A stretch of 64,000 nt of DNA from Candidatus Doudnabacteria bacterium. Its GTDB lineage: Bacteria; Patescibacteriota; Doudnabacteria; UBA920; O2-02-FULL-48-8. The stretch's first letter is position 1. Each line of letters starts with the position of its first letter. Below the pieces are notes generated by a model. That model made no database searches. It was not told the DNA's origin and saw only the letters and a program-made list of their open reading frames with translations. The stretch covers positions 26,047-90,046 of the forward strand of contig JAIFWV010000002.1 in NCBI GenBank assembly GCA_019659055.1, given 5' to 3'. This document shows positions 11,173 through 46,398 of this stretch, in pieces. Position numbers and translations under genes: made by a program.

Positions 11173-11201
11173 TTGACAAAATTGCCAAAAAGGAGTATAA
11201 T
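11173..11201 (+). promoter_or_regulatory. perfect consensus sigma70 promoter (TTGACA-17-TATAAT)
   Basis: TTGACAaaattgccaaaaaggagTATAAT. Confidence 0.65.
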
Positions 11202-11277
11202 TACTAGTTACGATCAAAACGGTTGTAACGCTTTAGAGTACAGCAAAGCCCACATATTTTGGGGCAAGGAGGACAGC

Positions 11278-13019: not shown

Positions 13020-13110
13020 GGGATAGAATTATGAATTTCGAATTATGAATTATGCTTATATTACATAGCCATAATTCCTGATTCCAGATTCCTAATTCGG
13101 ACCCAAGGCA

Positions 13111-13139
13111 TTGACCAAAGCCTGTCCGTATGCTAAACT
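13111..13139 (+). promoter_or_regulatory. promoter for rpmB (TTGACC-17-TAAACT)
   Basis: TTGACCaaagcctgtccgtatgcTAAACT 27 nt upstream of rpmB ATG. Confidence 0.5.
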
Positions 13140-14105: not shown

Positions 14106-17100
14106 TCAGAATAACGCCGGCTTGCCTAGACTTGCCACCACCGAGACATAACGGTCCTCGTTGAGGATCTCAGACAGGGAATGCGCGGGCATTGCTCCAT
14201 TGAACAGATACCCTTGCGCGCGATTGCACATATTTTCCCGCAAAAACGCCAGCTGATTTTTGGATTCCACTCCTTCGGCTGTTATTTCCATGTTGAGACT
14301 GCGCCCGAGCGTGATAATTGATTTCGCAATTGCCGAATTTTGCATATCCATGGGGATACCCTTCATGAAAGTTCTCTCGATTTTGAGCATATCCACCGGA
14401 AAATGTTTGATGTAGCGCAAAGACGAATACCCGGTCGAAAAATCATCGAGGCAGAATCTGACTCCCCGTTCGCGCAAGGCATTCATGATGCTTGTAATAT
14501 TGTCTTCATTTTCGGCCAGGATTGATTCTGTAAGTTCGAGTTCCAGAAAACGAGCGTCAAATTTGGATTCTTCGATAGCGCCGATGAGGACATTCTCAAA
14601 ATTCTTCTGCTTGAATTGCCGGGCCGAAAGATTGATAGCCATAATCATTTTGTAGCCGGCATCGTGCCACATCTTCCCCTGCTTCAAGGCTTCTTTGAGT
14701 ATCCATTCGCCAATGGGTTCTATGAGTCCGTTGGCTTCTGCCAATGGGATAAACCGGTCAGGCAAAATCAGCGTCATATCCGGCCTCTGCCAACGGATAA
14801 GCTCTTCTGTCCCAACTATTTTACCTGTGGCGACATCTACTTGCGGCTGGTAAAACAGCACGAACTCCTGGTTTTCCAGAGCGTGTCGAAGCTTGGAATC
14901 CAGAGTTAGCCGTTCGTAGGCCGCCGAATTCATTGTGGTCGTATAGAACTGATAGGTATTGCGGCCGTATTCCTTGGCGCGATAAAGTGCGGCCTCGGCA
15001 TTTCTGAGCAGACTCGAGGCCTCTCTGCCGTCGTATGGATAAAGGCTGATACCAATACTCGGGCTGATAAACAGCTCGTGCTGGTCAAGGTAAAACGCGG
15101 GCCGGAAATCCTCCAAAATTTTATTGGCAAGCTTAGCCGCTTCTTCTTCGGTCTGGATATCGGCCATAAGGATTGCAAATTCATCACCGCCAAGCCGAGC
15201 TAAGACATAATCTTCTTTGACACAGCTGCGTACGCGCAAAGCGACTTCCTGAATCAGGCGATCGCCCAAAGCATGACCCAGAGATTCGTTTATTTGCTTA
15301 AATCGATCGAGATCGAGGAGCATAATTCCCAAATTCTGACCGTTGGCTTCGGCATCCGAAATAGCTTGCGCGAACCGTTCATTGAGGTAAGTCCGATTGG
15401 GCAGATCCGTGAGAGTGTCGTGATGGTACTGATACTGCAGGTTTTCTTCCGCGAGCCGGCGTTCGGTGATATCGCGAAAGTTTACAACCATGGCCCGAAT
15501 ACTCGGGTGGTGCAAAAGATTTGTACCTACTCCCTCAATCCAGCGATAGTTGCCATTGGCATGGCGGCAGCGGTATTGTGCGGTAATCGTCTGGTCCGGC
15601 TTGCGCAAGCTCGTGGCCAGAAGCTCGGCCACCAGCGGGGCGTCGTCGGGGTGCACTATATTTCTAATATTTACTCCGTGCATTTCTTCCGATGTGTATC
15701 CAAGCATACGCTGGACCGGCATGGTCGCAAATGTCAGGACACCGTTGGCATCGAGGAGTGCCACGCCGTCTGAGGTGTTATCGATAATAGCGCGGTACCG
15801 CTCTTCGCTGACCTGAAGTTTCTGTTCCATGAATTTACGCTCACGGATCTCTATCTGAGCTTCCCGATAGAGTAAGGCGTTGTCGATGGCCATGCCGGCG
15901 CGTCGGCCGAGCTCTTCGAAGAATTTAAGATCCTTCTCCTCATAGCGCTTGTTGGACTCTGCCCAGATCAAGGACATGACCCCGAAGACTTTATCGCGTG
16001 CGACCAAAGGCACCATAAGTGCGGACTTAATACCGAGCTTGGACGTGAGTTCATAATGCTCCGGATCGCGCGAACTGGCGCGGAGCATGTCGTCGGTAAT
16101 CTCCTTATAGATTTCAGCTTTTCCGGTGGTGATGATTTTCCAGGTCCCACGCTCCGGATCTTTGTGATTCGGATACTTTCTTGCCAATTCCACAGCAAAT
16201 TTTATTTTTTCCGGGTCCACGTGTTCTACTGCGACTTGCTTTGTGTTTTCGCCGTCAGGAGTGAGAATTTCGATTCCGCACCAATCGGCAAATTTGGGGA
16301 CGGCTAATTTCGCCACTCGCGCCAGTGTTGTCTCAAAATCCAAAGACGATGATAATAATTTCGTAGCTTCGGATAAAAACACGACCCCTTCGTCGGCTTG
16401 TTTGGATTTCGTAATGTCGCGAGCCACGGCCGAGGCACCCACGACTTTGCCGGAATTATTTTTTATTGGCGAGACCGCCACGGATATGTCCAAAATCCGT
16501 CCGTCTTTGGTTTTCCTTTTGGTCTCATAGTGATTAACACCCCTGCCGAGTCGGATCTGCGCCAAAAGCATTCTGGTGTCATCCGGAAAGCCTTCCGGAA
16601 CCAAGACTGAAACATTCTTGCCGAGAATTTCTTGTTCGGTATAGCCATATATCCTTACCGCTCCTTTATTCCAGCTCGTGATGTTGCCTTCTAGATCTTT
16701 GCCCATGATCGCGTCCTCAGACGATTCAACTATAGCTACAAGTTTGAGATTGGCCTCGAGGGCGGTTTTTTGAGGAGTGATGTCGCGCAGATACACAGCA
16801 AGGCCGTCTTTGGCGGGGTACACTGAGGATTCTATCCACTTCGGCATATTTCCCGGTTCAGAAAATTTTTCTTCGTAACGCAGGGATTTATTTTCCAACA
16901 AGGCTTCCTGCAGTTTGGAATAGGTCGCGGTCTGCATTGCGTTTGGAAATTCCTGAAAAATATTTTTTCCCAGAAGCTCGCTCCGGTTCCGCTGTAACAA
17001 CTGTTCGGCTTGGCGGTTGACGTATGTAAAGTTCCAATCTTTATCCAACGCAAAAAAGCCGTCAGTAATACTTTCGAGAATATGCTGGTTCCGGCGATTG

Positions 17101-17600
17101 ATTTTTTCGTATTCAGACTGTATATTTCTCTGCGCTGTGATATCTCGAAAAATACTCACAGCAAATCGGACCTTGCCCTCGCTGTCCCTGATGGGGCGAG
17201 CTTTGATTTCTGACCAAAACTCTGATCCCGTTTGCCGATTTCTGGAAAGTACAATCTTACTCGGTACCTCGAGCCCGTCCAGAGCAGATCTGGCTGGCAG
17301 GTCATTGAAGCTCACCGGGTTCCCGTTCTCATCAAAAATCTCAAACTTGTTTATGGCGTCGGAAACTAAATGATTTATAATCTCGGATTTATTATTGAAA
17401 TCCATAAGGGCGACCGCTGCGGCATTGGCAAAAACCACCCGGCGGCTTTCATCCTGAACGATTACGCCGTCGGCAATAGCCTGAAAAATTTCTTCTAAGT
17501 TTTGTTTCGCGTCGAGTTGCCCGAAAAGCCGCCCTAAAGTTACATCCGAATTTTGCTGATTAGTGTCTGAAATCATACGATAAACCTTCATTGTGGCCAC
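14106..17600 (-). CDS. multi-domain signalling protein: PAS/GAF sensor domains + GGDEF diguanylate cyclase + EAL phosphodiesterase
   Basis: 1164 aa; several PAS-like repeats, GAF-like segment, RLGGDEFAIL (GGDEF), EELIRWQ and downstream EAL-domain conserved blocks. Confidence 0.85.
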   Translation of the reverse strand: MATMKVYRMISDTNQQNSDVTLGRLFGQLDAKQNLEEIFQAIADGVIVQDESRRVVFANAAAVALMDFNNKSEIINHLVSDAINKFEIFDENGNPVSFNDLPARSALDGLEVPSKIVLSRNRQTGSEFWSEIKARPIRDSEGKVRFAVSIFRDITAQRNIQSEYEKINRRNQHILESITDGFFALDKDWNFTYVNRQAEQLLQRNRSELLGKNIFQEFPNAMQTATYSKLQEALLENKSLRYEEKFSEPGNMPKWIESSVYPAKDGLAVYLRDITPQKTALEANLKLVAIVESSEDAIMGKDLEGNITSWNKGAVRIYGYTEQEILGKNVSVLVPEGFPDDTRMLLAQIRLGRGVNHYETKRKTKDGRILDISVAVSPIKNNSGKVVGASAVARDITKSKQADEGVVFLSEATKLLSSSLDFETTLARVAKLAVPKFADWCGIEILTPDGENTKQVAVEHVDPEKIKFAVELARKYPNHKDPERGTWKIITTGKAEIYKEITDDMLRASSRDPEHYELTSKLGIKSALMVPLVARDKVFGVMSLIWAESNKRYEEKDLKFFEELGRRAGMAIDNALLYREAQIEIRERKFMEQKLQVSEERYRAIIDNTSDGVALLDANGVLTFATMPVQRMLGYTSEEMHGVNIRNIVHPDDAPLVAELLATSLRKPDQTITAQYRCRHANGNYRWIEGVGTNLLHHPSIRAMVVNFRDITERRLAEENLQYQYHHDTLTDLPNRTYLNERFAQAISDAEANGQNLGIMLLDLDRFKQINESLGHALGDRLIQEVALRVRSCVKEDYVLARLGGDEFAILMADIQTEEEAAKLANKILEDFRPAFYLDQHELFISPSIGISLYPYDGREASSLLRNAEAALYRAKEYGRNTYQFYTTTMNSAAYERLTLDSKLRHALENQEFVLFYQPQVDVATGKIVGTEELIRWQRPDMTLILPDRFIPLAEANGLIEPIGEWILKEALKQGKMWHDAGYKMIMAINLSARQFKQKNFENVLIGAIEESKFDARFLELELTESILAENEDNITSIMNALRERGVRFCLDDFSTGYSSLRYIKHFPVDMLKIERTFMKGIPMDMQNSAIAKSIITLGRSLNMEITAEGVESKNQLAFLRENMCNRAQGYLFNGAMPAHSLSEILNEDRYVSVVASLGKPALF

Positions 17601-17805: not shown

Positions 17806-18195
17806 TTAGTTTAACTGCGATGTGCAATGCGGACAGCGGGAAGCTTTGATAGGGATAAGAGTATGGCAAAATGCGCACTCTTTCTCACTTATGTCCGCCT
17901 CGGGCTTGCGGCGGAATCGGTTCATTTGTTTGACTACCAAAAAAATTGCGAAGGCGATAATCAAAAAGTTGATTATGCTATTGATAAACGCGCCGTAAGC
18001 CAACACTGCTCCGGAGGGAAAAGTCCACTTCAGGTTTGAGAAATCGATATTGCCCAAGATAAGTCCAAATGGCGGCAGGATAATGTCATGGACAAGCGAA
18101 TTAACTACTGCACCAAAAGCGGCGCCAATAATGACGCCGATTGCTAAGTCTATGGCATTGCCTTTGATGGCAAATTCTTTGAACTCCTTAAACAT
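17806..18195 (-). CDS. mscL: large-conductance mechanosensitive channel
   Basis: [39 protein letters not shown] canonical MscL. Confidence 0.88.
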
Positions 18196-23934: not shown

Positions 23935-24639
23935 TTATTCCTCGAGCATGACATGACTCTTCTCAAGCAAAGGCGTCCAAATAATTTTATTTATAGAAAA
24001 CACGATCAAGAGCAGGCCGAGAATACCAAAAAAAGTGATCGTTGGATGTGTGCTGAATCTTTGAAAAAAAGTTCCCAACCCCGGTTTGACGTTCACGATA
24101 ATTTCTGTGGCGATCAGGGCCTCCCAGCCTTCGCCGAGGCTTATAATCGATCCGGTGATCAAACCCGGTACGGTTACTGGCCAGAGAAAATATCGAAAAT
24201 AATTCCATCCGGATAATCTCGACATCTCAGCCGCTTCCACCCAATCTTTGCGTACGAGCTTCAAGGATGAGATGACATTGAAACAAATCGGCCAGACGAT
24301 AGTGATCGTGAGAAAAAAAATGACGGTAAAATTCGTAGCCCCCCAATAATAAGCAGCAAACGGGACTGCGGCAAAAATCGGAAAGCTCTGCAGGACATCA
24401 AAAAGCGGCAAGGCCACATGAGAACGGGAACCCCGATAAAACAACGCCGCTAAACACCAGCCCAACGCGGCGGCAAGAATGTATGCGGCCAAAAGCCGGA
24501 AAATCGAGATGAAAACATCATAGAATAGCTCCCCTGTGGCAATCTTTACGACTTTAGAGAAAAATAGCAAAAATAAAAAAGGCAGAGCGACAATTAAGAT
24601 CGTAGCCACCAAATGTGCCCGGCTCCGGTAAATTTTCAT
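23935..24639 (-). CDS. ABC transporter permease (NitT/TauT-like)
   Basis: multi-TM permease abutting ATPase gene; track N-terminus (to 24729) is read-through of the tRNA fragment, start at MKIYRS (24639) preferred. Confidence 0.75.
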   Translation of the reverse strand: MKIYRSRAHLVATILIVALPFLFLLFFSKVVKIATGELFYDVFISIFRLLAAYILAAALGWCLAALFYRGSRSHVALPLFDVLQSFPIFAAVPFAAYYWGATNFTVIFFLTITIVWPICFNVISSLKLVRKDWVEAAEMSRLSGWNYFRYFLWPVTVPGLITGSIISLGEGWEALIATEIIVNVKPGLGTFFQRFSTHPTITFFGILGLLLIVFSINKIIWTPLLEKSHVMLEE

Positions 24640-24683
24640 TCGATTTCGGTTTCTATGATTTTGCATTTTTTGTCCCGTACAAA

Positions 24684-24747
24684 TGGTGCCGCTGGTCGGA
24701 ATCGAACCGACATGGCCGTAAGGCCACACGATTTTGAGTCGTGCGTG
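24684..24747 (-). pseudogene. partial duplicate of tRNA-Leu(CAA): 3' 64 nt only (anticodon arm to CCA), no matching 5' half
   Basis: 64-nt segment identical to the corresponding part of the full tRNA-Leu 88 nt away; upstream sequence cannot pair as acceptor stem. Confidence 0.6.
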
Positions 24748-24771
24748 CCCCGCACCAGCAATCTATACAAA

Positions 24772-24858
24772 TGGTGCCGCTGGTCGGAATCGAACCGACA
24801 TGGCCGTAAGGCCACACGATTTTGAGTCGTGCGTGTCTGCCAGTTCCACCACAGCGGC
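24772..24858 (-). tRNA. tRNA-Leu (anticodon CAA), type II with long variable arm
   Basis: acceptor GCCGCTG/CAGCGGC, anticodon stem CACGA/TCGTG with loop CUCAAAA, variable arm TGGCCTTACGGCCAT, T-arm GTCGG-TTCGATT-CCGAC, A73, encoded CCA. Confidence 0.8.
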
Positions 24859-24980: not shown

Positions 24981-25487
24981 CTAACTCGAAATGGGTTTTT
25001 TGAAAAGGCCGCGCAAAGCGGCGGCAATGACCGCGGCGATGATAACACTGGCCGCAATATCAATAGGAAAATGTACGCCGACATATACCCGCGCCAGCGA
25101 GCCCAATGACGCCAGGATTATAAACGGCCAAAAATATTTTGTGCCGTAGAATGCAAACGCAAAACTAAAATAAATTACTGTATGACCGGAGGGAAAAGAC
25201 ATGCCATGCTCATTGTCTGCTAAGAGCTGATGAATATTGGCCACGATTTCATAGGGTCTGGGATGATTTACGATCCTTTTGATGACCTCCACGATAAAAA
25301 GACGGGAAACCGCAGCGGCCAATACCGCCAAATAAACATGGGTTCTAAGTCGCTTATCCAGCCACAAGGCCACAATGATAATGGCAAAAACATATAAAAA
25401 TTTCTCAGCAAAAAAGACTCCCAATGTATCGAAGAATTGGGATCGGCCGGCTAATCCATTGATTGCAAGAAAAATTTGTTGGTTCAT
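24981..25487 (-). CDS. PAP2-family phosphatase (undecaprenyl-diphosphatase-like)
   Basis: KRIVNHPRP, SFPSGH, GVHFPIDIAAS = PAP2 motifs; track start 25499 is GTG, ATG at 25487. Confidence 0.75.
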   Translation of the reverse strand: MNQQIFLAINGLAGRSQFFDTLGVFFAEKFLYVFAIIIVALWLDKRLRTHVYLAVLAAAVSRLFIVEVIKRIVNHPRPYEIVANIHQLLADNEHGMSFPSGHTVIYFSFAFAFYGTKYFWPFIILASLGSLARVYVGVHFPIDIAASVIIAAVIAAALRGLFKKPISS

Positions 25488-25494
25488 ATACGGA

Positions 25495-25566
25495 ACCACT
25501 TCGAGCGATTAGCGAGAAGTCTAGGTGTTAAATACCGAGATCTCTCACGTTCGTTCGAGATGGGCT
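25495..25566. repeat. 72-nt conserved intergenic element, copy 1 (ends 8 nt upstream of PAP2 ATG)
   Basis: ~93% identical to 32179-32248; contains GAGATCTC palindrome and terminal complementary arms CCACTTCGAG / TTCGAGATGG. Confidence 0.7.
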
Positions 25567-25571
25567 TAATG

Positions 25572-26807
25572 CTATAGACCAGGTGCTGGGAAATTCTTAG
25601 CAAATCTCTTGACCTCGTCTTTCACTTGCAATGCTATTGAGTGATCAGTAATCACAGCGGCAATCCACGAGGCGATCTTGCTCATTTCTTTTTCTTTCAT
25701 GCCGCGGCTCGTGACTGCGGCTGTCCCTAACCGCAGACCAGAAGGATCCATGGGCGACCGCTTATCAAAAGGAATCATATTGCGATTAAGTACGATCCCG
25801 GCCGATTCCAAAAGATTCTGAGCATCTTTGCCGCCAATATTTTTGTTGGTCAGATCCATCAGGATCAGATGGTTATCGGTCCCGTCGGAAACGAGTCGGA
25901 ACCCAAAATCCTGCAGGCTTCTGGCTAAGGCGCGGCTGTTTTTGACGATTTGTTCTGCATATTTGCGGAAACCGGCACTGCGCGCCTCCTTCATGGCGAC
26001 TGCAATTCCAGCAATAGCATTTTCATGAGGACCGCCCTGCATGCCAGGGAACACGGCCTTATCAATAGAGGTTGCAAATTTATCTTTGCACATGATTATG
26101 CCGGCGCGCGGACCGCGGAGCGTTTTATGGGTAGTCGTAGTTACGACATCGAAAAACGGAATTGGCGACTGATGGACGCCAGCCGCAACCAATCCCGCGA
26201 TATGGGAAATATCCGCCATCGAAATGGCATTGACCTTCTCGGCTATCTCGTGAAATTTTTTGAAATCAATTTCACGCGGGTAGGCTGTGAACCCGGATAG
26301 AATTAAACGCGGACGAGTCCGGTCTGCAAGCTTTAGGATCTCAACGTAGTCCAAGCGTTCAGTTTTGGGATTGACGCCATAATGAACAAAGTTATATTGC
26401 TTTCCCGAAAAATTAACTTTGGAACCATGCGTAAGGTGCCCACCATGAGCCAAATCCAAAGCTAGAATCGTATCTCCAGGATTGAGCAGGCCCGCATAAA
26501 CTTCCAAGTTCATAGGACTGCCCGAGTACGGCTGGACATTTACATGCCAATCGATAGGTAATTCAAAGCCTTCTTTTACACGTTCAATTGCCAGACGCTC
26601 GACATCGTCGATAACTTCGTTGCCGGCATAATATCTTTTGCCCGGGTAGCCTTCGGCGTATTTGTTATTGAGCACCGACCCGAGGGCTTCCAGGACTTCA
26701 TCCGAAACATAATTTTCCGAAGCGATCAATTCCAAAACTTCGGATTGCCTTTTCCGTTCTCTTTGGATGAGATCATAAACTTGTGGATCAGACTTTTTTA
26801 AACCCAT
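25572..26807 (-). CDS. glyA: serine hydroxymethyltransferase
   Basis: 411 aa; GSPMNLEVYAGL, HGGHLTHG, TTTTHKTLRGPR(AG) PLP-Lys motif. Confidence 0.93.
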   Translation of the reverse strand: MGLKKSDPQVYDLIQRERKRQSEVLELIASENYVSDEVLEALGSVLNNKYAEGYPGKRYYAGNEVIDDVERLAIERVKEGFELPIDWHVNVQPYSGSPMNLEVYAGLLNPGDTILALDLAHGGHLTHGSKVNFSGKQYNFVHYGVNPKTERLDYVEILKLADRTRPRLILSGFTAYPREIDFKKFHEIAEKVNAISMADISHIAGLVAAGVHQSPIPFFDVVTTTTHKTLRGPRAGIIMCKDKFATSIDKAVFPGMQGGPHENAIAGIAVAMKEARSAGFRKYAEQIVKNSRALARSLQDFGFRLVSDGTDNHLILMDLTNKNIGGKDAQNLLESAGIVLNRNMIPFDKRSPMDPSGLRLGTAAVTSRGMKEKEMSKIASWIAAVITDHSIALQVKDEVKRFAKNFPAPGL

Positions 26808-27978
26808 TGGCTTTTATCTTAGTGGTTAGTAAAGCGTAAAAAAGCGTGAGGACTCCTGCAAACACGAACACTAAATAAATATTATGCGTCAATTTGAGAA
26901 TGATAATAGAGGCTAAAGCCGTAACGATTTTACCCATCGATAAACTAAATTCGACAAAAGTCGAATAGACCAAGGTGAACGCTTTATCTCTTTGCCTGGC
27001 CGTCTCGAAAGTTAGGCTCACCAGAGGTATATTGATCAGGCCCTTGCCGATCTTGGTCATAGTGTCAAAAATCAGAACAGACACTGCGTTGATTGCCGTA
27101 AACCGGAAAAACCAGGTCAGGGCATAAAAAAATGAAACTTCGCCGGTGAGCTTGCTCTTATCCGTATGATCGGCGAGCCTGCCTATGTACAACATTAGCA
27201 CGCAGGCAACCAGACTGGCAAATGTCGTAATCAACCCGACTCCGAAGAGTTGGCCTAAGATAATATACATCAGAACCGGCCATAAACTCATGAGCATCAG
27301 ATCTTCGGCATACCCAAAGTAACCAAAAAAATTCCGGGGATTTTGGGTAACAAAATACAAGAGCTGGCGTACGCGAAAGCTTCCGCTAAATTTGACTTCG
27401 CTGGTAAAAAATAGTGGGATCGAAGAGAGAATCATCATCGTCCCCGCGGCAAGGAACAAATAATAAAATCCGAAACTCTGGGAAATAATTCCACCCAAGA
27501 ACGGTCCGACTATATAAGCCAAATCAACTAAAACCATAATCATCCCCACTTGCCGGCCACGTTCACTGCGATTACTGGCAAGCGAAGTCAAAGTATTGAA
27601 CGCGGGCCAGAGAAAAGATTTTTGGATCGCAAATAAGATTGGGGTTGCGATAAACAACCATGGGTGATTACCAATCAGGAATAATCCAATCCAGTACAAA
27701 AGGTAAAAACAATTTCCCAAAAGGATTGAATGCTTGAGTCCGAAGCGATGAGCAAATTTTGCCCCAAGCATCATGAGCACGCAGTACCAGCAATAGACCT
27801 GAACATAAAACCACATGAGTGAGACAAGATTGAACCCTAGATGGTAAAGATAAATTGGTTCAAAGATGTACGCCAGCGATAACCCAAAACCATTGAGCAT
27901 GGTAAACCAGTAGATCTGTTTGACCTCGCGGTTGGGTTTATATGAAAAATAGTGCGGGTGCGGAATTGAAAAAAACAT
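26788..27978 (-). CDS. MFS-type transporter
   Basis: 12 predicted TM segments, MFS-like loop motif (G.D..GR) not verified. Confidence 0.6.
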   Translation of the reverse strand: MFFSIPHPHYFSYKPNREVKQIYWFTMLNGFGLSLAYIFEPIYLYHLGFNLVSLMWFYVQVYCWYCVLMMLGAKFAHRFGLKHSILLGNCFYLLYWIGLFLIGNHPWLFIATPILFAIQKSFLWPAFNTLTSLASNRSERGRQVGMIMVLVDLAYIVGPFLGGIISQSFGFYYLFLAAGTMMILSSIPLFFTSEVKFSGSFRVRQLLYFVTQNPRNFFGYFGYAEDLMLMSLWPVLMYIILGQLFGVGLITTFASLVACVLMLYIGRLADHTDKSKLTGEVSFFYALTWFFRFTAINAVSVLIFDTMTKIGKGLINIPLVSLTFETARQRDKAFTLVYSTFVEFSLSMGKIVTALASIIILKLTHNIYLVFVFAGVLTLFYALLTTKIKANGFKKV

Positions 27979-27981
27979 TTA

Positions 27982-28593
27982 TTAGAGCGCTTTTTTTATT
28001 TCTTTTTCGCTAATGGGTCCTTCTCTTAATATTTTAACACGATTATTGACAATAGCCACTATTGTCGAAGGCGCAACCCTTTTGAGTTTGCCCCCGTCCA
28101 AATAAAAATCTGGTTTGAGTTTATATTTAGCAAACTGTTTTTTGACTTCTGAAACTGAATATGTGGTGGATTGGCCGCTGACATTTGCCGAAGTCGTGGT
28201 AATGGGCTTGCCTAAGGCCTCGCATAGTATTTGTGCCGGTGGATGATTGGGGTATCGGATCCCAATCGTTTTCGTACCTGCCGAAAGCATTTTCCAAGAT
28301 GCTCCGCGGGCTTTGAGCGGGACTATGATTGTCAGCGGCCCTGGCCAAAATTTGTTGATCAGTTTCAGCACGGCACGATTCAGACTGTAATACGGTACAG
28401 TAAGTAAGTCTGTACTCGGGACTATTACATGAGTAGGCTTTTTGAAATCGCGTCCTTTAAGCGTATAGAGTTTTTTTACCGCGGCTAGATTGGTCGCGTC
28501 CACGGCCAAACCATAAGCGGTGTCGGTGGGATAAACCACGACACCGCCTGCTTTGAGAACTTTGATTGCTTGTTCTATTGAAGAGATCCTCAT
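27982..28593 (-). CDS. tsaC: L-threonylcarbamoyladenylate synthase (TsaC/YrdC family)
   Basis: VYPTDTAYGLAVDA, GPLTII..., KPITTTSANVSG motifs of YrdC/Sua5. Confidence 0.82.
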   Translation of the reverse strand: MRISSIEQAIKVLKAGGVVVYPTDTAYGLAVDATNLAAVKKLYTLKGRDFKKPTHVIVPSTDLLTVPYYSLNRAVLKLINKFWPGPLTIIVPLKARGASWKMLSAGTKTIGIRYPNHPPAQILCEALGKPITTTSANVSGQSTTYSVSEVKKQFAKYKLKPDFYLDGGKLKRVAPSTIVAIVNNRVKILREGPISEKEIKKAL

Positions 28594-30965
28594 TCTTTGA
28601 CTACAAAATTTACAAGCCTATCGGGTACGAACACAACTTTCATTATTTTCTTATTTGCCAAATCAAGCTTGGCAAACAGCTCTGAGGAATCAATCAAGTT
28701 CTTGGTTTGCTTTTCGGATAATCCGGCATCAGCTTCAATCATCCCTCTTTTCTTGCCGTTGATCGAGATTACTATCTCAACTTTATCATCACGGGCAAGA
28801 CTTTCGTCGAACTCCGGCCATTTCTCCAAGTGGATAGATTCTTTGTGCCCAAGCTTTTGCCAGAGCTCTTCGGTAAGATGCGGAGCAAACGGGGCCAAGA
28901 GTTTCAAAAAACTTTCCCAGTCAGACTGACTCAAATTCTTATTCTCGTTTAAGAATTCCATGAATGCCGCTACTGCCGTATTGAATTTAAAATTCTCAAT
29001 GTCGGAGGTGATTCTTTTTATAAGTTTGTGGATATTTTTATTACTTGAGGCAAACTCACCCGCTTCAGAGAACCTGATTACTTTTTCGAGGAATCTGGAT
29101 AACCCGACCATCCCTTGGGTACTCCAGGGTTTCGCATCTTCAAGCGGACCCATGAACATTTCGTACATGCGGAATACATCCGCTCCATATTGTTCGATGA
29201 TTTCATCAGGGTTTACGACATTGCCGCGCGATTTACTCATTTTTTCTCCATCTGGTCCTAAAATAAGTCCTTGATTACGGAGCTGCTTAAATGGTTCATT
29301 AAAGCTGATATACTCCAACTTATTTAAAACCTTAGTAAAAAACCGCGCGTAGAGTAAATGCAAAACCGCGTGCTCAGCGCCGCCAACATAAGTATCAACC
29401 GGTAACCATTTCTGCATTTGTTCTTTGGATGCGAATTCTTCCAAATTATTTGGATCGGTAAACCTAAAGAAGTACCAAGACGAATCCACAAAGGTATCCA
29501 TCGTATCCGAATCCCTGCGGGCGGGTTCGTTGCACTTGGGACACTTTACATCGTGAAATGATTTGGACCTTGTTAATGGCGACTCACCTGTTGGCAGAAA
29601 ATCAACATCGGTGGGTAGCTTTACAGGCAAATCTTGTTCTGGTACTGATTGCATACCACATTTGTCACAATAAATTATAGGGATGGGTGACCCCCAATAC
29701 CTTTGTCGCGAGACAAGCCAATCTCTGAGTTTATATTGAATTTTTTCCGTCCCGAATCTCTCGGCCATCTCCGACCGAGCTGTGGAAGAACTCTCACCAG
29801 TAAAGTCACCAGAATTAATAAGCATCCCTTCGCCTTCATAACAATCATCGATTTCGTGATCAGGTTTTATAACTTTAACAATTCCTAAATCGTATTTTTT
29901 GGCAAAAACATAATCGCGCTCATCATGAGCAGGCACAGCCATAATTGCGCCGGTGCCGTAACTACCCAAAACATAGTCAGCAATCCAAACTGCTATTTTT
30001 TCTTTTGTTGCCGGATTGATAGCATGTATTTTGGTATCAACACCGGTTTTATCTTTGGTCTCTGCAATCCGGACGAGTTCCGTCTTCTTAGACGCCTGAC
30101 TAATGTATGCCACAACCTCCTGTGGCGCGCGCCAACCGACATCTATCCATTTCTGAGCCAATTCAGGAGAGATCACCAAAAAAGTGGCTCCGAATATCGT
30201 ATCAGGCCTGGTAGTAAATACTTCTACAAAATGTTTGGCATCTTCTTGACCTGGAATATCTGTCAGAGAAAATTCTATTAGAGCCCCTTCGGACCGGCCA
30301 ATCCAATTTCGTTGCATTTGCTTGATTGGTTCCGGCCAATCGAGTGTATCGAGACTCGTAAGTAAATCTTCAGTAAAATCAGTGATCTTAAAAAACCATT
30401 GCGATAAAAGTTTTTGCTCAACCACGGTCCCACATCTCTCGCAAGCACCGTTTACCACTTGTTCATTTGCCAGAACAGTTTGATCTTTGGGACACCAGTT
30501 CACTGAAGCTTCTTTCTTATATGCGAGGCCGTTCTTATATAGCAATAAGAATAACCACTGAGTCCATTTATAATAATCTGGGCTCGAAGTATTTACTTCT
30601 CGTTCCCAGTCATATGAAAAACCAAAAGATTTAATTTGGTTCCGGAAACGCTCAATATATTTAGGAGTAGTCTCCCAAGGAGGATTCCCAGTTTTGATAG
30701 CAAAATTCTCAGTCGGCAAACCAAAAGCATCCCAACCTAGAGGATGGAGTACGTCGTAACCTCTCATTCTGTTCATCCGAGATAAGATATCTGTTGCTGT
30801 GTATCCTTCCGGGTGGCCAACATGAAGACCGGATCCAGAAATATATGGGAACATATCCAAAATATATCTCTTCTTTGCAGGGTCAGGATTCTTGGGAGTC
30901 TTGTATATTTTTTCCTGCTCCCATTTCTCCTGCCACTTTTTTTCTATCTCTTTATGATCGTACAT
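28590..30965 (-). CDS. leuS: leucyl-tRNA synthetase
   Basis: HVGHPEGY (HIGH), class I LeuRS architecture incl. CP1 editing region and KMSKS (KMSKSRGN); start at MYDHKEIEKKW. Confidence 0.93.
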   Translation of the reverse strand: MYDHKEIEKKWQEKWEQEKIYKTPKNPDPAKKRYILDMFPYISGSGLHVGHPEGYTATDILSRMNRMRGYDVLHPLGWDAFGLPTENFAIKTGNPPWETTPKYIERFRNQIKSFGFSYDWEREVNTSSPDYYKWTQWLFLLLYKNGLAYKKEASVNWCPKDQTVLANEQVVNGACERCGTVVEQKLLSQWFFKITDFTEDLLTSLDTLDWPEPIKQMQRNWIGRSEGALIEFSLTDIPGQEDAKHFVEVFTTRPDTIFGATFLVISPELAQKWIDVGWRAPQEVVAYISQASKKTELVRIAETKDKTGVDTKIHAINPATKEKIAVWIADYVLGSYGTGAIMAVPAHDERDYVFAKKYDLGIVKVIKPDHEIDDCYEGEGMLINSGDFTGESSSTARSEMAERFGTEKIQYKLRDWLVSRQRYWGSPIPIIYCDKCGMQSVPEQDLPVKLPTDVDFLPTGESPLTRSKSFHDVKCPKCNEPARRDSDTMDTFVDSSWYFFRFTDPNNLEEFASKEQMQKWLPVDTYVGGAEHAVLHLLYARFFTKVLNKLEYISFNEPFKQLRNQGLILGPDGEKMSKSRGNVVNPDEIIEQYGADVFRMYEMFMGPLEDAKPWSTQGMVGLSRFLEKVIRFSEAGEFASSNKNIHKLIKRITSDIENFKFNTAVAAFMEFLNENKNLSQSDWESFLKLLAPFAPHLTEELWQKLGHKESIHLEKWPEFDESLARDDKVEIVISINGKKRGMIEADAGLSEKQTKNLIDSSELFAKLDLANKKIMKVVFVPDRLVNFVVKE

Positions 30966-31020
30966 TTTGCTTATATGCGTATTTAAGATTATTATGTAAT
31001 CAACTGCCAAGGAGGGTCAA

Positions 31021-31395
31021 ATGCCTGTTCTGCCCATTCCCGAGAAACTCGACAACTTTCGCGACCTTCTCAGCACTGCCATTTTTCACAGCTATCAGGC
31101 TGCCGCTTCCGGGAAACTTGCGGCTCCCGCATTTTCGCGAATTGTACCGATTGTCACATCAGATCCAGTTGCGTACGAGATCCATTCTTACGAAGATGCT
31201 CCCTATGCGGAGTTCATCTGGAGTCTCTGGTTTCTCATAGCCTCAGACCATGAAGTCTTCGGACAGCTTCAGGCGATGCGTTCGGATCTACAGCAACAGA
31301 ATTTCCGTGTCTGGGTCGGCATAGGCGTTTCGCCAAATATTTTCTCTGAAGCCGATTTCGGTCTTCTCCAAGGATCCGGGATAATGCAGATCTAA
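31021..31395 (+). CDS. hypothetical protein (124 aa)
   Basis: strong SD AAGGAGGG 5 nt before ATG; lone plus-strand gene between leuS and tatD. Confidence 0.5.
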   Translation: MPVLPIPEKLDNFRDLLSTAIFHSYQAAASGKLAAPAFSRIVPIVTSDPVAYEIHSYEDAPYAEFIWSLWFLIASDHEVFGQLQAMRSDLQQQNFRVWVGIGVSPNIFSEADFGLLQGSGIMQI

Positions 31396-32171
31396 GTCCT
31401 CAAGCCAGTGCTTGGGGACTTTTCTAATTGGTAGATCCGGCAAGCATTGGTAAAGGTCAGGTCTGAAACTTCTTCAAGGCTTACTTCTCTGATTTCGGCA
31501 ATCCGCTCGGCGACCCGCTTCACATTTGCAGGCTCGTTGCGCTTGCCGCGGTTGGGCGAGAGAAACGGCGCATCCGTTTCTATGAGTATTCTATCAGACG
31601 GCAGATTCTTTGCCACTTCGGCCAGTCTACCAGTTTTATCGAAAATCAGGATGGCATTCAGGGCAATATAGTATCCCAGGTCCAAAAACTTTTTCGCGGT
31701 GTCCCCAGAATCAGTAAACGAATGGATGATCGCCTGTCCCGTATATTCGGCTTGCAAAATTTCTATCAAATCATGGTAAGCGTCTCGGCAATGAATCACA
31801 AGCGGTAACCCTAGCTTTTGCGCAAAATGAATTTGCTTGATAAATTCGGCTTTTTGCTTATTGATCCCTGCTTCCTCTTTTTGGTGATAATAGTCCAATC
31901 CGCACTCCCCAATTGCTACGACTTTATCTGTGATCAGAGCAGAGTAAATCTCTTCATCGAAATGTTCTTTGCTGTCTGTGGGATGCTGACCGACAGTGGC
32001 ATACACTCCATCTTTAAATTTCGAAGCCAGTTCAACTGCGGATTTGGATGATTTATAGTCGCAACCGACGTTGGTCATCCAAAGCCCTTGGTCTTGTGCG
32101 TCTTTGAGGATTTGCTCCCGGTCAGGATCAAATTCGGGAAAGTTTACGTGTGTGTGAGTATCAAATAGCAT
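31392..32171 (-). CDS. tatD: TatD-family metal-dependent deoxyribonuclease/hydrolase
   Basis: LFDTHTHV, IGECGLDY, conserved His/Asp/Glu ligands of TatD. Confidence 0.85.
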   Translation of the reverse strand: MLFDTHTHVNFPEFDPDREQILKDAQDQGLWMTNVGCDYKSSKSAVELASKFKDGVYATVGQHPTDSKEHFDEEIYSALITDKVVAIGECGLDYYHQKEEAGINKQKAEFIKQIHFAQKLGLPLVIHCRDAYHDLIEILQAEYTGQAIIHSFTDSGDTAKKFLDLGYYIALNAILIFDKTGRLAEVAKNLPSDRILIETDAPFLSPNRGKRNEPANVKRVAERIAEIREVSLEEVSDLTFTNACRIYQLEKSPSTGLRT

Positions 32172-32178
32172 TATAGTG

Positions 32179-32248
32179 ACCACTTCGAGCGATTAGCGAG
32201 AAGTCTGGGTGTTATTACCGAGATCTCTCACGTCCGTTCGAGATGGGG
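32179..32248. repeat. 72-nt conserved intergenic element, copy 2 (ends 8 nt upstream of tatD ATG)
   Basis: see copy 1; identical placement relative to start codon. Confidence 0.7.
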
Positions 32249-33685
32249 TTATTCAATTTTCTGAAACAATGGTTCGGGTTTCTTGATGTCGCCGGATTCA
32301 ATAATCTTTCGGATTTTGTTGGCAGTATCCGGCATCACGGGTGCAAGCTTCCCCGCAATATCATAAAGCAACCCAGTAAGGTTTAAGAGCAGCTCCTTCA
32401 CTTTTTCAGGTTCAGTCTTTACCAATTCCCATGGTTTGGCCTTATCAATCAACTGATTGGCCCAGGCAATTTCTTCCCAGATTTTCACCAGGCCTTCAGA
32501 AAAATTGAGAGTACTAAATGCATCCCAGGCTGCCGATAGATCTTTGGGTGAAACCGCAAAGTCGGCAACATCACCATCAAGATATTTTTCGATCATATTA
32601 GTTGTGCGCGAGAAAAGATTGCCGAGACCATTGGCCAAATCGCCGTTGTAGCGGATCTTGAGTTTTTCTTCCGAGACATCGCCGTCTTGGCCAAACGGCA
32701 CTTCCCGCAATAGAAAATACCGGACCGCGTCGGCGCCGTATTTGGCCACCCAATCGTTGGGATCGATAACGTTACCGATAGTCTTGCTGATTTTTTGGCC
32801 GCCAATGGTAAAAAATCCATGCGCAAAAATCGCGTGCGGTAATGGTAAATCCACGGCCAGCAACAACGCCGGCCAAATTATGCAATGAAATTTGATAATG
32901 TCTTTGGCCATGACCTGAATATCGGCCGGCCAGTAGTTGCGGAACTTTTCTTCGTCTTCTCCAAAACCAATTATCGAACAGTAATTAAACAATGCTTCGA
33001 CCCAGACGTAAACGGTTTGTTCCGGATCCCACGGCAAAGGGATTCCCCATTTGACGTTTGGCCTGGAAATAGCAATATCTTCCAAACCTTGTTTGATAAA
33101 CGACAACACTTCGTTTTGTCTCGTGTACGGCCGAATCCGGAATTCATCCGTCTCAATCCGTTCTTTGAGTATGTCGCCGTATTCCGAGAGTTTAAAGAAC
33201 CAATTTTTTTCCTTGATTAATTCAGGCTTGGTCTTATGATCCGGGCACACGCCGTCCACTAAATCTGATTCTTTGATAAATGCCTCGTGACCTACGCAAT
33301 AGAGTCCTTCGTATTCGCCTTCGTAAATCTTCCCCGAATCTTTGAGCATGGTGAGAAATTTCGCCACGGCTTGCTTGTGCCGCGGCTCTGTGGTGCGGAT
33401 AAAGTCATCTGAGCTGATATCGAGCTGGTCCCAAGCAAAAGAGAATTTAGCGGAGATTTCATCAACAAATTCTTGCGGGGTCTGTTTGGCTTTCTCCGCG
33501 GCTTGGGCGATTTTTGCCCCATGCTCGTCGGTCCCTGTTTGGAAAAACACATCCTCGCCCAAAAGCCGATGCAGGCGGGCCACCACATCTGCGGCAATGG
33601 TCGTATAAGCATGACCAATATGCGGTTTATCGTTTACATAATAAATCGGGGTGGTGATATAAAATTTTTGACGAACTGTGTCCAT
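32249..33685 (-). CDS. metG: methionyl-tRNA synthetase (short form)
   Basis: PIYYVNDKPHIGHAYTT (HIGH), KISKTIGN (KMSKS-like), MetRS anticodon-binding region. Confidence 0.92.
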   Translation of the reverse strand: MDTVRQKFYITTPIYYVNDKPHIGHAYTTIAADVVARLHRLLGEDVFFQTGTDEHGAKIAQAAEKAKQTPQEFVDEISAKFSFAWDQLDISSDDFIRTTEPRHKQAVAKFLTMLKDSGKIYEGEYEGLYCVGHEAFIKESDLVDGVCPDHKTKPELIKEKNWFFKLSEYGDILKERIETDEFRIRPYTRQNEVLSFIKQGLEDIAISRPNVKWGIPLPWDPEQTVYVWVEALFNYCSIIGFGEDEEKFRNYWPADIQVMAKDIIKFHCIIWPALLLAVDLPLPHAIFAHGFFTIGGQKISKTIGNVIDPNDWVAKYGADAVRYFLLREVPFGQDGDVSEEKLKIRYNGDLANGLGNLFSRTTNMIEKYLDGDVADFAVSPKDLSAAWDAFSTLNFSEGLVKIWEEIAWANQLIDKAKPWELVKTEPEKVKELLLNLTGLLYDIAGKLAPVMPDTANKIRKIIESGDIKKPEPLFQKIE

Positions 33686-35242: not shown

Positions 35243-35553
35243 AGCTAAATTCTAAAGAATTGCTAGCGAATAAGCAATAGCTTAGAAGCTGGGAAGCTGG
35301 AATCTAGAATCTAGGAATAAACCAGGCTGCGGCCTGGTTTTGGTTTTCCCGACACTCGGAAAAATTTTGTCGGAATTTCAATCGAGCATATGTCCCATTG
35401 CGAGGAGTCCCGCCTACCACAAAAAAATTAATAGCCGGGGTGGGACGACGCGGCAATCTTTTTTAAGAGAGCTCGCCACGCGGCCTACTAGATTTAAGCT
35501 TAAGCAAACGGCCGCTCGCGATGGACAGATATATTCAGGATGACGGCGCATGG

Positions 35554-35580
35554 AACACCCGACACCCCGTCCCGGGTGTT
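35554..35580. repeat. 27-nt hairpin repeat AACACCCG-R-GACGGGGT-S-TCGGGTGTT (copy, reverse orientation)
   Basis: identical (as reverse complement) to 55131-55157; just downstream of nfo stop. Confidence 0.6.
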
Positions 35581-35591
35581 CAAGGATAGCC

Positions 35592-45183: not shown

Positions 45184-45431
45184 TTACTTCTCCTCCTAAA
45201 CAGCCTCCGAACCTTTCAGAGACTCATTTAAACCAACAATGATTATTATGGGCTTAAAAAGAAATGGGTTAAGCAATTTTTCATGTATTCAGAATAGATT
45301 ACCAATGGTTAATTATACTCCTTTTTCGGGATTTTGTCAATACTTACGCTCCTTGGGCAAAAAAAACAGGACCGCACCTAGTATGGGCGGTCCTTCCTAA
45401 ATATCTTCGGGGCTGTAAAACCCCAGAAGGT

Positions 45432-46022: not shown

Positions 46023-46094
46023 GCTTTTCCTCCTGGAAAACATTGTTGACCGAATCGTAGCAATATAAAAATATGGTGTCAAAAACCTTATAGG

Positions 46095-46112
46095 CTAATT
46101 CGTGCGAATTAG
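46095..46112. promoter_or_regulatory. 18-bp palindrome CTAATTCGTGCGAATTAG (copy 1), putative ArsR-like operator upstream of 45432..46022
   Basis: perfect 8-bp arms; three copies in window, all in promoter regions flanking the ArsR gene or nearby operon. Confidence 0.5.
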
Positions 46113-46366
46113 ACCAATGTCAGACAGTGCTTTATGGCTGGGTGAAGGGCGTTCAAACAATAAAAAACAGACAAACCCCTCTGGTCGCGATCGATAATTT
46201 CTGAAGTACGCAATACAGCAAGATGCCTGGATGTGGCTCGGAAAGACAGGTGCAAATACGCAGCAATGTCGGTGACGCTTGCCTCTCTGTGCTGTTTGAG
46301 ATATTTGATTATCAAAAGCCTCCTCCTGTTTGCCAGTGCCTTATATATTTTCTCCAAATCTTTCAT
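46109..46366 (-). CDS. ArsR/SmtB-family HTH transcriptional regulator
   Basis: 85 aa; LANRRRLLIIKYL..ASVTDIAAYLHLSFRATSRHLAVLRTSEII winged-HTH of ArsR family; no CVC metal motif. Confidence 0.75.
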   Translation of the reverse strand: MKDLEKIYKALANRRRLLIIKYLKQHREASVTDIAAYLHLSFRATSRHLAVLRTSEIIDRDQRGLSVFYCLNALHPAIKHCLTLV

Positions 46367-46368
46367 AG

Positions 46369-46386
46369 GCTAATTCGTGCGAATAA
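46369..46386. promoter_or_regulatory. palindrome copy 2 (CTAATTCGTGCGAATAAG, 1 mismatch) abutting ArsR-like gene start: putative autoregulatory operator
   Basis: starts 3 nt after the ArsR ATG on the opposite strand. Confidence 0.5.
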
Positions 46387-46398
46387 GTCTTAGACTAT

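Follow-up and report, generated by a model that had tools for sequence, protein, structure and literature searches.

Each of the two copies of a ~73-nt repeat present in the window (the whole 64,000-nt stretch of Candidatus Doudnabacteria DNA analyzed here) is probably a miniature mobile DNA element that is palindromic and non-autonomous; the family to which it belongs occurs widely in Patescibacteria (CPR). Genomes of these bacteria are about 1 Mb in size and tightly packed, and few repeats are usually expected in them. We observed the repeat and its family, a modular hairpin architecture, insertion polymorphism, and many unrelated contexts, including the interior of genes. The miniature palindromic elements of this family resemble REPINs, RPEs, and MITEs. 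Our modest conclusion on the two copies is that they are ordinary repeat insertions, with no evidence for regulation of the neighboring PAP2 or tatD genes; a regulatory side-effect on either gene is possible but unsupported.

Two copies at operon junctions and the corresponding empty sites

Copy A (25495–25568, plus strand) lies between the stop codon of glyA (serine hydroxymethyltransferase, 25572–26807; PF00464, E = 3.9e-160) and the start codon of a PAP2 phosphatase gene (24981–25487; PF01569, E = 6.6e-19). Copy B (32179–32251, plus strand) lies between the stop codon of metG (methionyl-tRNA synthetase, 32249–33685; PF09334, E = 2.1e-107) and the start codon of a tatD hydrolase gene (31392–32171; PF01026, E = 2.2e-78). 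Both copies thus sit between two minus-strand genes, the glyA and metG genes being upstream; Pfam bears out all four gene names given in an earlier, sequence-only reading of this DNA. The TatD protein of the window was 100% identical to a Candidatus Doudnabacteria protein. The PAP2 and tatD ORFs can both be extended to a GTG within the element.

The copies share ~93% identity, with four substitutions and one 1-nt indel, all confined to loop or mismatch positions; their arms agree in every base across 27 nt (CCACTTCGAGCGATTAGCGAGAAGTCT) and almost completely across 32 nt. No match of this kind arose when the window was shuffled with its dinucleotides preserved, confirming that the two conserved copies are real. 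A covariance model built from the family matched only copy A (86.6 bits) and copy B (80 bits) in the 64-kb window, and a density of two copies in this length looks low.

In both copies, 7 nt separate the start-codon CAT from the first base of the repeat (25488–25494 and 32172–32178); the same placement before both ATGs, reported by the sequence-only reading with a distance of 8 nt, therefore stands with a corrected distance. The upstream stop codons adjoin the repeat, as had been claimed, but the repeat does not begin right after them: the metG stop (TTA, 32249–32251) constitutes the final three nucleotides of copy B, inside the repeated sequence, and the glyA stop (CTA, 25572–25574) is located 3 nt past the last repeated base of copy A. 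The palindrome GAGATCTC described earlier is present in the window copies; it is not conserved as a palindrome, since related copies read GCGATCTC or GGGATCTC.

In related genomes metG and tatD overlap by ATGA (L135, L136, L137, and the P0017 contig), and glyA and PAP2 are separated by 0–16 nt (L134, L135, L137, L138, and P0017); therefore, copies A and B are insertions. Beside copy A, the glyA stop codon and a short glyA–PAP2 spacer of the L135 type are still discernible. Locus L098, conversely, has a repeat copy in front of an M50 peptidase gene, a position at which the window lacks one. Both insertions would have entered operon junctions that formerly had no or almost no spacer, which would be the reason why the repeat adjoins both the stop and the start codons. 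The identical placement relative to the ATG, taken earlier as the main argument for a promoter or 5′-UTR module, is explained in the same way and gives that argument no support. Direct repeats indicative of a target-site duplication were found neither around A or B, compared with the empty sites, nor at 20 other copies. We likewise saw no intermediate of transposition, no footprint of an excision, and no recent identical copy.

Hairpin modules and distribution of the family

The building block of the element is a hairpin module of roughly 25 nt (21–27 nt) which comprises, from the outside inward, an outer stem of 4–5 bp, G·A/A·G mismatches (5′-GA...GA-3′), a GC-rich helix of 2–7 bp, and a loop of 3–5 nt. 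Both module helices covary, and the two tandem G·A/A·G mismatches are of the sheared type. The window element consists of two inverted modules on either side of a middle hairpin that varies, and an outer stem of 3 bp closes the whole; because of the inversion, one GA-form module is available per DNA strand and per transcript in either direction. In copy A, module 1 (25499–25519, plus strand), the GA hairpin C-UUC-GA-GC-GAUUA-GC-GA-GAA-G, carries the invariant 18-mer at 25501–25518. It is followed on the same strand by the central variable hairpin (25520–25540; TCTAGGT/ACCGAGA stem) and by the inverted, diverged module 2 (25541–25560), the GA form of which is on the minus strand (UCUCGAACGAACGUGAGAGA), as indicated by loose-motif matches. 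Copy B has the same order on the plus strand: the GA hairpin of module 1 (32183–32203; 18-mer at 32185–32202), the central variable hairpin (32204–32223, by comparison with copy A), and the inverted module 2 (32224–32243, from loose-motif matches on the minus strand and pairing counts).

The closing pair of the module was Watson–Crick in 101 of 114 instances and occurred as four types (CG, TA, GC, AT). In the paired-arm set, the module 1 closing pair was Watson–Crick in 45/47 and the y′:x′ pair of module 2 in 39/47, with CTC/GAG alternating with TTC/GAA; the alternative inter-arm pairs reached only 18/47 and 19/47. The stem of the central hairpin varied in sequence among the aligned genomes while pairing was kept. 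A set of 100 related modules had outer stems TTC/GAA, CCT/AGG, TCT/AGA, TCC/GGA, and CCC/GGG around the invariant GA...GA, with varied inner helices. Complementary outer ends are CCA/TGG in the window copies, as noted earlier, and also TATT/AATA and TGTCAT/ATGACA in the family. The hairpin potential ascribed to the element was confirmed as well: the RNA minimum free energy of the window copies was −26 to −33 kcal/mol, with z = −3.1 to −3.9 on either strand. In energy models a single long hairpin, at −31 kcal/mol, is preferred to the fold with three hairpins, at −17 kcal/mol; the latter is suggested by comparative data, at odds with this energy preference.

The 18-nt core (TCGAGCGATTAGCGAGAA) was found in at least 120 metagenome contigs and in 13 Patescibacteria genomes. 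A 20-mer was present at 13 loci of species-representative genomes titled Daviesbacteria, Doudnabacteria, Microgenomates, or Patescibacteria, and gave four more matches titled Gammaproteobacteria or Pseudomonadales. One of these four turned out to be a Daviesbacterium: its Gammaproteobacteria label is wrong because the PNPase gene adjoining the copy is 88–90% identical to Daviesbacteria proteins, and a host range beyond Patescibacteria was rejected on this ground. A viral origin was also rejected, the 20-mer having no matches in viral contigs. The covariance model recovers variants of the core, e.g., GAGCGGTTAGCGAG, GAGTGATTAGCGAG, and GAGGCCGATTAGGCCGAG; the identity of the 18-mer across classes is partly a matter of ascertainment because the scans demanded an exact match. 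Such identity across Patescibacteria classes is odd for selfish repeats and could reflect a host function. Literature searches with the core sequence and variants of related motifs returned only unrelated primer matches, and keyword-level searches returned REP/REPIN and TIGR-Tas papers, none describing the element. A relation to TIGR-Tas was discarded, since TIGR arrays are tandem, unlike the dispersed single elements found here.

Among the 114 instances, 61 were arranged head-to-head, 9 tail-to-tail, 1 in both ways, and 43 were single or unresolved. Relative to the flanking genes, copies face either way; they lie directly after stop codons, before start codons, and against tRNA 5′ ends. In L006, L008, and L109, tRNA genes have a single module right against their first base, in L012 one lies 4 nt from an ATG, and in L003 divergent genes have tail-to-tail pairs between them. 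Copies of the same subfamily occupy unrelated junctions (groES|groEL, grpE|dnaK, rplT|next gene, and HD|prmC), and the genes flanking copies are functionally unrelated to one another. A 72-nt copy is inserted in frame within dus in L004, splitting the Pfam Dus match in two, and another is in frame within a cobQ-like (GATase_3) gene in L022. Copies not tied to gene starts, which the sequence-only reading had associated with a generic repeat, are thus found in other genomes, where they lie in both orientations, after stops, against tRNAs, and inside the dus and cobQ-like genes.

As to how operons evolve, such elements are able to push in between genes that overlap, up against tRNA genes, and in frame into enzymes; where they separate overlapping genes, translationally coupled genes are therefore uncoupled. 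Regarding annotation, they yield spurious peptides (e.g., ...FSLIARS... or ...CHSERSEES...), and start-codon predictions are shifted as well. The presence or absence of a copy is a handy strain-level marker for population genetics in metagenomes.

Mobility and alternative explanations

Since the element has neither a target-site duplication nor cargo, we infer that an enzyme acting in trans and recognizing hairpins may copy it in the form of single-stranded hairpin DNA, by analogy with REP/REPIN and the IS200/IS605 family. Once transcribed, it would be a passive intercistronic stem-loop, tolerated because its folding would re-join the upstream stop and the downstream start. We failed to find a transposase or other mobilizing gene, including a RAYT (Y1 transposase) gene, among the 48 ORFs of the window; among ORFs adjoining copies elsewhere (n = 150), no mobilizing gene was enriched (GIY-YIG occurred twice), and the families they share did not include RAYT. 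In ~1 Mb searched, 59 of 65 matched end pairs were spaced 59–171 nt apart, and the search revealed no autonomous insertion sequence bearing these ends. A cargo-bearing or autonomous version was rejected: few end pairs are separated by more than 200 nt, and the ones inspected flank ordinary genes for secreted proteins, which themselves contain an intragenic module.

The strong conservation of the 18-nt hairpin across classes suggests a putative protein partner, which is the part most worth chasing. There is perhaps a modest chance that the GA-hairpin module, in its near-invariant UCGAGCGAUUAGCGAGAA form, is the recognition element of an undescribed Patescibacteria-wide hairpin-binding system; this could be a new ssDNA mobilization enzyme or a host RNA-binding protein using the modules as orientation-independent intercistronic signals. 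If so, the elements would be maintained host partners and not junk.

An unlikely rival explanation is that of an exapted cis-acting RNA, in which the stem-loop or a protein-bound GA hairpin controls processing, stability, or translation of the tatD or PAP2 cistron. It draws on the strong fold of the mRNA strand, at −26 kcal/mol with a z of about −3.2, the common 7-nt distance from the element end to the ATG, the restriction of A/B substitutions to unpaired positions, and the inverted modules, which present one GA hairpin on transcripts of either direction; in addition, REP sequences, which are similar repeats, are thought to stabilize mRNA (PMC3733652). A Shine–Dalgarno motif was found in only 5 of 44 genes of this organism, and because it is rarely used, local structure may matter for initiation. 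At the same time, the orientation of copies relative to flanking genes is inconsistent, copies also lie after stops, beside tRNAs, and within coding sequence, the flanking genes have no functional relation, and in close relatives the same operons are expressed although the element is absent. The Rfam scan proposed earlier matched no family to the element: at the gathering threshold the sole match in the window was a tRNA, and for 12 element-bearing loci no match at E ≤ 1 overlapped an element. The motif GAAGUGG was rejected as a Shine–Dalgarno sequence, by inspection not being complementary to the usual anti-SD; the organism is also mostly devoid of SD motifs.

It is very improbable that the repeat is a portable promoter or operator cassette providing the downstream gene with transcription signals or a repressor binding site. 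The modules that abut tRNA genes or approach an ATG and the tail-to-tail pairs between divergent genes are consistent with this explanation, and copy B generates a TATAAT overlapping the tatD ATG. Copy A, however, has no TATAAT, intragenic copies are known, and the window copies are inside operons that relatives transcribe without the element. No sigma-70-type promoter (−35/−10 hexamers with 16–18 nt spacing) was predicted in 25200–25900 or 31900–32600, and the canonical promoters present elsewhere in the window (TTGACA-17-TATAAT) do not resemble the element. Of the three candidates put forward in the sequence-only reading, the miniature mobile element was thus essentially right, while the promoter lacks a sigma-70 site and the regulatory RNA lacks an Rfam match.

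Smaller still is the chance that the element represents a tRNA-like or tmRNA-derived structured RNA, whether as a gene or as a relic. Its core is similar to the 5′ part of tmRNA, and it can be drawn as a ~72-nt cloverleaf of four helices without linker nucleotides, but this fold falls 14 kcal/mol short of the hairpin in stability; ARAGORN detected neither a tRNA nor a tmRNA at any of the copies, the Rfam tRNA and tmRNA models match none, and the copy number and variable placement are too great for a gene. GC-richer loci, in which the same 18-mer is followed by AUGCCGAG, recall the 5′ region of E. coli tmRNA, and one of them directly follows smpB; a tmRNA identity of these 'GATAT-core-TATATGCCGAG' loci was rejected, ARAGORN and Rfam being negative despite the smpB neighbor. 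Scarcely credible to the same degree is an intrinsic terminator or attenuator between cistrons: a stable hairpin does lie directly 3′ of the stop codon, but it has no U-tract on either strand, the next sequence being GUGGUUCCGUAU or GUGGUCACUAUA, a terminator scan gave none in the element (its only match was a weak stem spanning the PAP2 start), and the 18-nt core is common to several bacterial classes, unlike terminators.

Comparison with known repeat systems

The mobile element favored here is most readily compared with REP sequences and REPINs. REPs are short imperfect palindromes, and inverted REP doublets form hairpins (PMC3116915 and PMC3733652). RAYT tyrosine transposases, whose genes usually have REPs on their flanks, are the presumed mobilizers of both. 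The likeness lies in the short imperfect palindromic unit (20–40 bp there and a covarying module of about 21–27 nt here), in two inverted units around a spacer giving a larger hairpin, with single units also present, in copies mostly located between unidirectional genes and sometimes inside genes, and in the lack of target-site duplication and cargo. The core described here is, by contrast, common to several Patescibacteria classes; many REP families are specific to one species (PMC3733652). The foot of the hairpin has no GTAG or CGTC tag of the sort that stands unpaired at one end of a REP: such a tag occurred within 12 nt of the core, in either orientation, in at most 7 of 114 instances on either side, and the feet read ACCAC, TATTC, TATTG, or TGTCAT. 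The conserved part is an internal tandem G·A motif instead of a terminal tetranucleotide, the apparent copy density is low, while REPs reach high copy numbers within one genome, and the ORFs searched here include no RAYT gene.

Rickettsia palindromic elements (RPE), reportedly described by Ogata et al. in 2000 as small palindromic repeats of reduced genomes, insert both between genes and, in frame, into protein-coding ones. The repeats in dus and the cobQ-like gene resemble them in this respect. RPEs are about 100–150 bp in length, are not known outside Rickettsia, and are presumably unrelated in sequence to the element found here; the latter is 60–110 nt long and built from the GA-hairpin module defined above.

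In the Correia elements (NEMIS/CREE) of Neisseria, the terminal inverted repeats measure 26 bp and a TA is duplicated at the target; an IHF site and outward promoters are also present. Correia elements and other MITEs are gene-proximal and co-transcribed, forming mRNA hairpins able to alter transcript fate. Our element is likewise a miniature inverted-repeat element near genes, with the terminal inverted repeats expected of a MITE of a DDE transposon, but differs in having no target duplication, promoter, or detected autonomous element with the same ends. The very small palindromic mobile repeats of cyanobacteria, reportedly described by Elhai et al. in 2008 ('Very small mobile repeated elements', cited in PMC3116915), appear to insert into or beside existing hairpins and one another; they belong to another phylum and have other sequences, and the very short palindromic units they share with the element are a lead only.

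Copies of the element and their junctions

The same palindromic sequence was found twice in the window, between glyA and PAP2 (copy A, 25495–25568) and between metG and tatD (copy B, 32179–32251). The copies differ by four substitutions and one 1-nt indel; in their arms, 27 nt are identical and 32 nt nearly identical, and neither arm was ever present in shuffled window sequences. An imperfect hairpin of ~66 nt is predicted for each strand of the element (RNA −26 to −33 kcal/mol, z = −3.1 to −3.9). All flanking genes are on the minus strand and their identities were confirmed by Pfam: glyA (25572–26807) and the downstream PAP2 (24981–25487) for copy A, and metG (32249–33685) and the downstream tatD (31392–32171) for copy B. 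Sequence identity, shuffles and Pfam flanks thus confirm the sequence-only reading that two near-identical copies lie at two unrelated gene junctions. The distance to the start codon is also the same in both copies, as claimed, although it is 7 nt to the CAT and not 8. The stop codon of metG is the TTA at the end of copy B, and that of glyA lies 3 nt beyond copy A. An in-frame GTG within the repeat (25497–25499 and 32181–32183) makes a 4-codon extension possible for both downstream ORFs, which is why the ORF listing gives 24981–25499 and 31392–32183; such element-derived starts could be chosen by automatic annotation.

We compared the junctions in syntenic loci around TatD homologues (68–78% identity). 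The TatD protein of the window was 100% identical to a protein of a Candidatus Doudnabacteria MAG. Among the loci from other genomes or metagenomes, metG and tatD overlap by ATGA in L135, L136 and L137 and have 1 nt common to stop and start in the P0017 contig, whereas filled spacers of ~150, 78 and 85 nt were found in L134, L138 and L139, respectively; the window has 77 nt with copy B. Between glyA and PAP2 there are 7 nt in L135, 16 nt in L134, 2 nt in L138, a 1-nt overlap in L137 and a 4-nt overlap in the P0017 contig, against 84 nt with copy A in the window; L136 has the bacA gene in between, and L139 stops short of glyA. By this comparison, the spacers in the window are insertions. At the glyA|PAP2 junction of the window, the ancestral stop codon is still present with unchanged C-terminal residues FPAPGL, and next to the PAP2 ATG stands TTCCGTAT, a spacer resembling TTTCGTT of L135. 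Conversely, in L098 a copy closely precedes an M50 peptidase gene, and the orthologous window spacer (13020–13130) is without one.

The exact placement before the ATG had been read as an argument for a functional promoter or 5'-UTR module. This is not supported: the relatives' junctions have essentially no spacer, and insertion into such a junction by itself gives both copies the same placement. The other possibility raised with it, a miniature mobile element, is supported by the presence/absence variation and by the dispersal in many contexts.

Four related genomes each carry a different member of the wider GA-hairpin group (small hairpins with an outer stem, tandem G·A pairs, an inner GC helix and a loop) between metG and tatD, and in four other relatives this junction is empty. 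The occupants are the 72-nt element in the window, an element of ~140 nt in L134, a two-module element in L139 and, in L138 (8920–9020), a single module (GATCCTTCGGCTTCGCTTCAGGATGACA) with a diverged copy of the tatD 5' end (its first ~30 nt) on each side (ATGTTGTTTGATACTCATACTCACGTAAA and ATGCTATTTGATACTCATTGTCATGTCAAT); the second of these copies is functional and has its own GGAGG. The L138 arrangement suggests that an insertion was accompanied by a long duplication or that illegitimate recombination took place. The varied occupancy suggests that this site has been targeted repeatedly or, once occupied, has undergone turnover.

Module structure and distribution of the family

Besides being part of one arm of the long hairpin, the invariant 18-nt core of arm 1 (the 18-mer) forms a hairpin by itself: x-UUC-GA-GC-GAUUA-GC-GA-GAA-y. 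Its closing pair x:y is Watson–Crick in 101 of 114 instances (CG 39, TA 34, GC 23, AT 5). In the 47 elements with both arms identified, the local pairs hold in 45 (arm 1) and 39 (arm 2), whereas, for the same positions, the competing pairing between the arms is satisfied in only 18 and 19. Arm 2 alternates TTC...GAA with CTC...GAG as a paired change and, read on the opposite strand, is built like arm 1 (C-G, G·A, A·G, two pairs, loop), as seen partly by inspection. Module variants collected with a covariance model or a loose anchor kept both GA dinucleotides and changed both helices: the outer triplets were TTC/GAA (47), CCT/AGG (19), TCT/AGA (15), TCC/GGA (11) and CCC/GGG (3), and the inner helices, up to 7 bp long, were GC..GC (44), AC..GT (19) and GG..CC (9). 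The middle hairpin is variable in sequence, and its stem covaries. From these comparisons, the window element consists of two modules, the second inverted, on either side of a variable middle hairpin, with a 3-bp outer stem enclosing them. By nearest-neighbour calculation, the single long hairpin is more stable than the modular fold (RNA −31 versus −17 kcal/mol; DNA −10.7 versus −5.5); the comparative data show only that each arm evolves as an independent hairpin.

An exact 20-mer of arm 1 (TTCGAGCGATTAGCGAGAAG) matched 13 loci in species-representative genomes. Nine were titled Daviesbacteria, Doudnabacteria, Microgenomates group, Patescibacteria group or just "bacterium", and four (L002, L007, L010, L013) "uncultured Gammaproteobacteria" or "Pseudomonadales"; the L013 label is wrong, since the PNPase beside its copy is 88–90% identical to Daviesbacteria proteins. 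The 18-mer was present in at least 120 metagenome contigs by exact-match scan, and the repeat core had no match in the viral contigs scanned. The exact conservation of the 18-mer between classes is due in part to the demand for exact matches in the scans, yet it still suggests a putative conserved binding partner. Among the matches listed, 114 non-identical instances sort into flank types: ACCAC-core...GATCTCTCACTTCGTTCGAGATGG, which is that of the window, TATTC-core...GTTCTCACTTCGTTCGAACAATA, TATTG-core...CTTCTCACTTCGTTCGAAGAATA and TGTCATT-core...TTTCTCACGAGGCGTTCGAAATGACA.

Arms were arranged head-to-head, tail-to-tail or singly. Single arms touch the first base of tRNA-Gly or tRNA-Lys genes (L006, L008, L109) or lie 4 nt from an ATG (L012), and window-type copies elsewhere lie at groES|groEL, grpE|dnaK, rplT|next gene and HD|prmC. 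Within genes, a dihydrouridine synthase has its Pfam Dus match broken in two by a 72-nt in-frame copy (L004), and another copy adds ~22 residues (CHLERSERSREDFSLIARNDKS) to a CobQ-like amidotransferase (L022). These results show a dispersed repeat that is built of modules, forms hairpins and varies in presence/absence; it can occupy intercistronic sites, flanks of tRNA genes and reading frames. Further intragenic copies were met in an N-terminally anchored secreted-protein family, with an in-frame GA-hairpin module just past the membrane anchor (...SLRGS.AI...; ORFs L112 8863–9816 and L096 10860–11483, as well as L001 and L068).

Nature and possible spread of the element

Identity as tRNA or tmRNA was rejected, as nothing was called at the copies. 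Neither a sigma-70-type promoter nor a terminator was predicted in the element, and the canonical TTGACA-17-TATAAT promoters of the window (11156–11203; 45310–45357, inverted; 10501–10532) look different from it. The chief alternative, less likely but possible for these two copies, is that the element has acquired a role at the RNA level and affects how the downstream cistron is processed, stabilised or translated. No positive evidence supports this, and it fits poorly with the intragenic copies and with the lack of orientation bias: copies face both ways relative to neighboring genes and adjoin stops as often as starts.

As a probable mobile repeat, the element belongs to an already known kind, the small palindromic repeats such as REP/REPIN, RPE and MITE. 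No Rfam family matches it, and no description of this particular family was found in Rfam or the searchable literature. Its distinguishing traits are the tandem-G·A hairpin module, Patescibacteria hosts, intragenic in-frame copies and the absence from its instances of a GTAG or CGTC tag, by which the two REP super-families are defined according to PMC3733652. We failed to find target-site duplications or a cargo-bearing version (59 of 65 matched end pairs were spaced 59–171 nt). We infer a REPIN/RAYT- and IS200/IS605-like spread, since the element resembles that pattern in its inverted doublets, single units, and lack of target duplication and cargo (PMC3116915). Spread would be non-autonomous, the hairpin in single-stranded DNA being recognised by a putative enzyme encoded elsewhere. 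No transposase was found among the 48 window ORFs, and no family was enriched among 150 ORFs adjoining copies elsewhere (165 Pfam families with at most three members each; GIY-YIG twice).

In mRNA, the element would be a passenger. Coupled junctions may tolerate it because its fold returns the upstream stop and downstream start to within a few nucleotides, and also because the host mostly starts translation without Shine–Dalgarno sequences; a Shine–Dalgarno-like motif was found in only 5 of 44 predicted window genes.

Other repeats and features

A different element of ~110 nt was found in GC-richer contigs (L024, ~835–960; L093, L097, L133, L080/L123). In it, the same 18-mer forms a hairpin with a 6-bp stem; UAUAUGCCGAG, a second hairpin and ...GGCGYGAAGCUAUA follow, and direct repeats of ~13 nt lie on both sides of the element. 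One copy is directly 3' of smpB and others are near tRNA genes. The 5' part of the element resembles the tmRNA 5' region, but neither ARAGORN nor Rfam gave a call.

Other palindromic repeats were also present. A 32-nt GC-rich palindromic sequence, GGAACACCCGACACCCCGTCCCGGGTGTTCAA, occurs twice in opposite orientation (35552–35583 and 55128–55159, 97% complementary) and represents either a further dispersed repeat with a hairpin or a terminator used at both sites. The near-perfect palindrome ATAGGCTAATTCGTGCGAATTAGCCT, found three times in short intergenic spacers (46090–46122, 46365–46397, 49317–49349), adds a third family of small repeats to the window. The leuS|sua5 spacer of L137 (12120–12250) is occupied by yet another type (CCTCCCCTAGTATAGGGGAGG / GGAGGGGTAG...), which also surrounds the type-A element in L088; different hairpin repeats thus cluster or nest. 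A perfect 70-nt direct repeat (24678–24747 and 24766–24835, spaced 88 nt apart) may have arisen by tandem duplication or be the scar of an integration. The 3' two-thirds of tRNA-Leu(caa) (24772–24858, minus strand) are contained in its second copy, so that a partial tRNA duplicate lies just downstream, overlapping the start region of an ABC-permease ORF (23935–24729).

The three TTGACA-17-TATAAT promoters have spacer sequence in common, TTGACAAAAT..CC.AAAA.G..TATAAT, which suggests that this genome has a conserved type of extended promoter or operator. TATAAT a few nucleotides ahead of the ATG of some window genes (e.g., 51255–52280, 17806–18195) suggests leaderless mRNAs. A low-GC island (56000–60000; 0.32–0.35 versus ~0.47 elsewhere) may have been horizontally acquired; the three ORFs in it (56281–58743, 820 aa; 58901–59362; 59355–60167) had no Pfam match. 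The genes for ribosomal proteins L4 and L3 have a glycerophosphodiester phosphodiesterase gene (1592–2272) between them, and a 1161-aa PAS/GAF/GGDEF/EAL signalling protein, unexpected for such a reduced genome, was encoded at 14106–17591.
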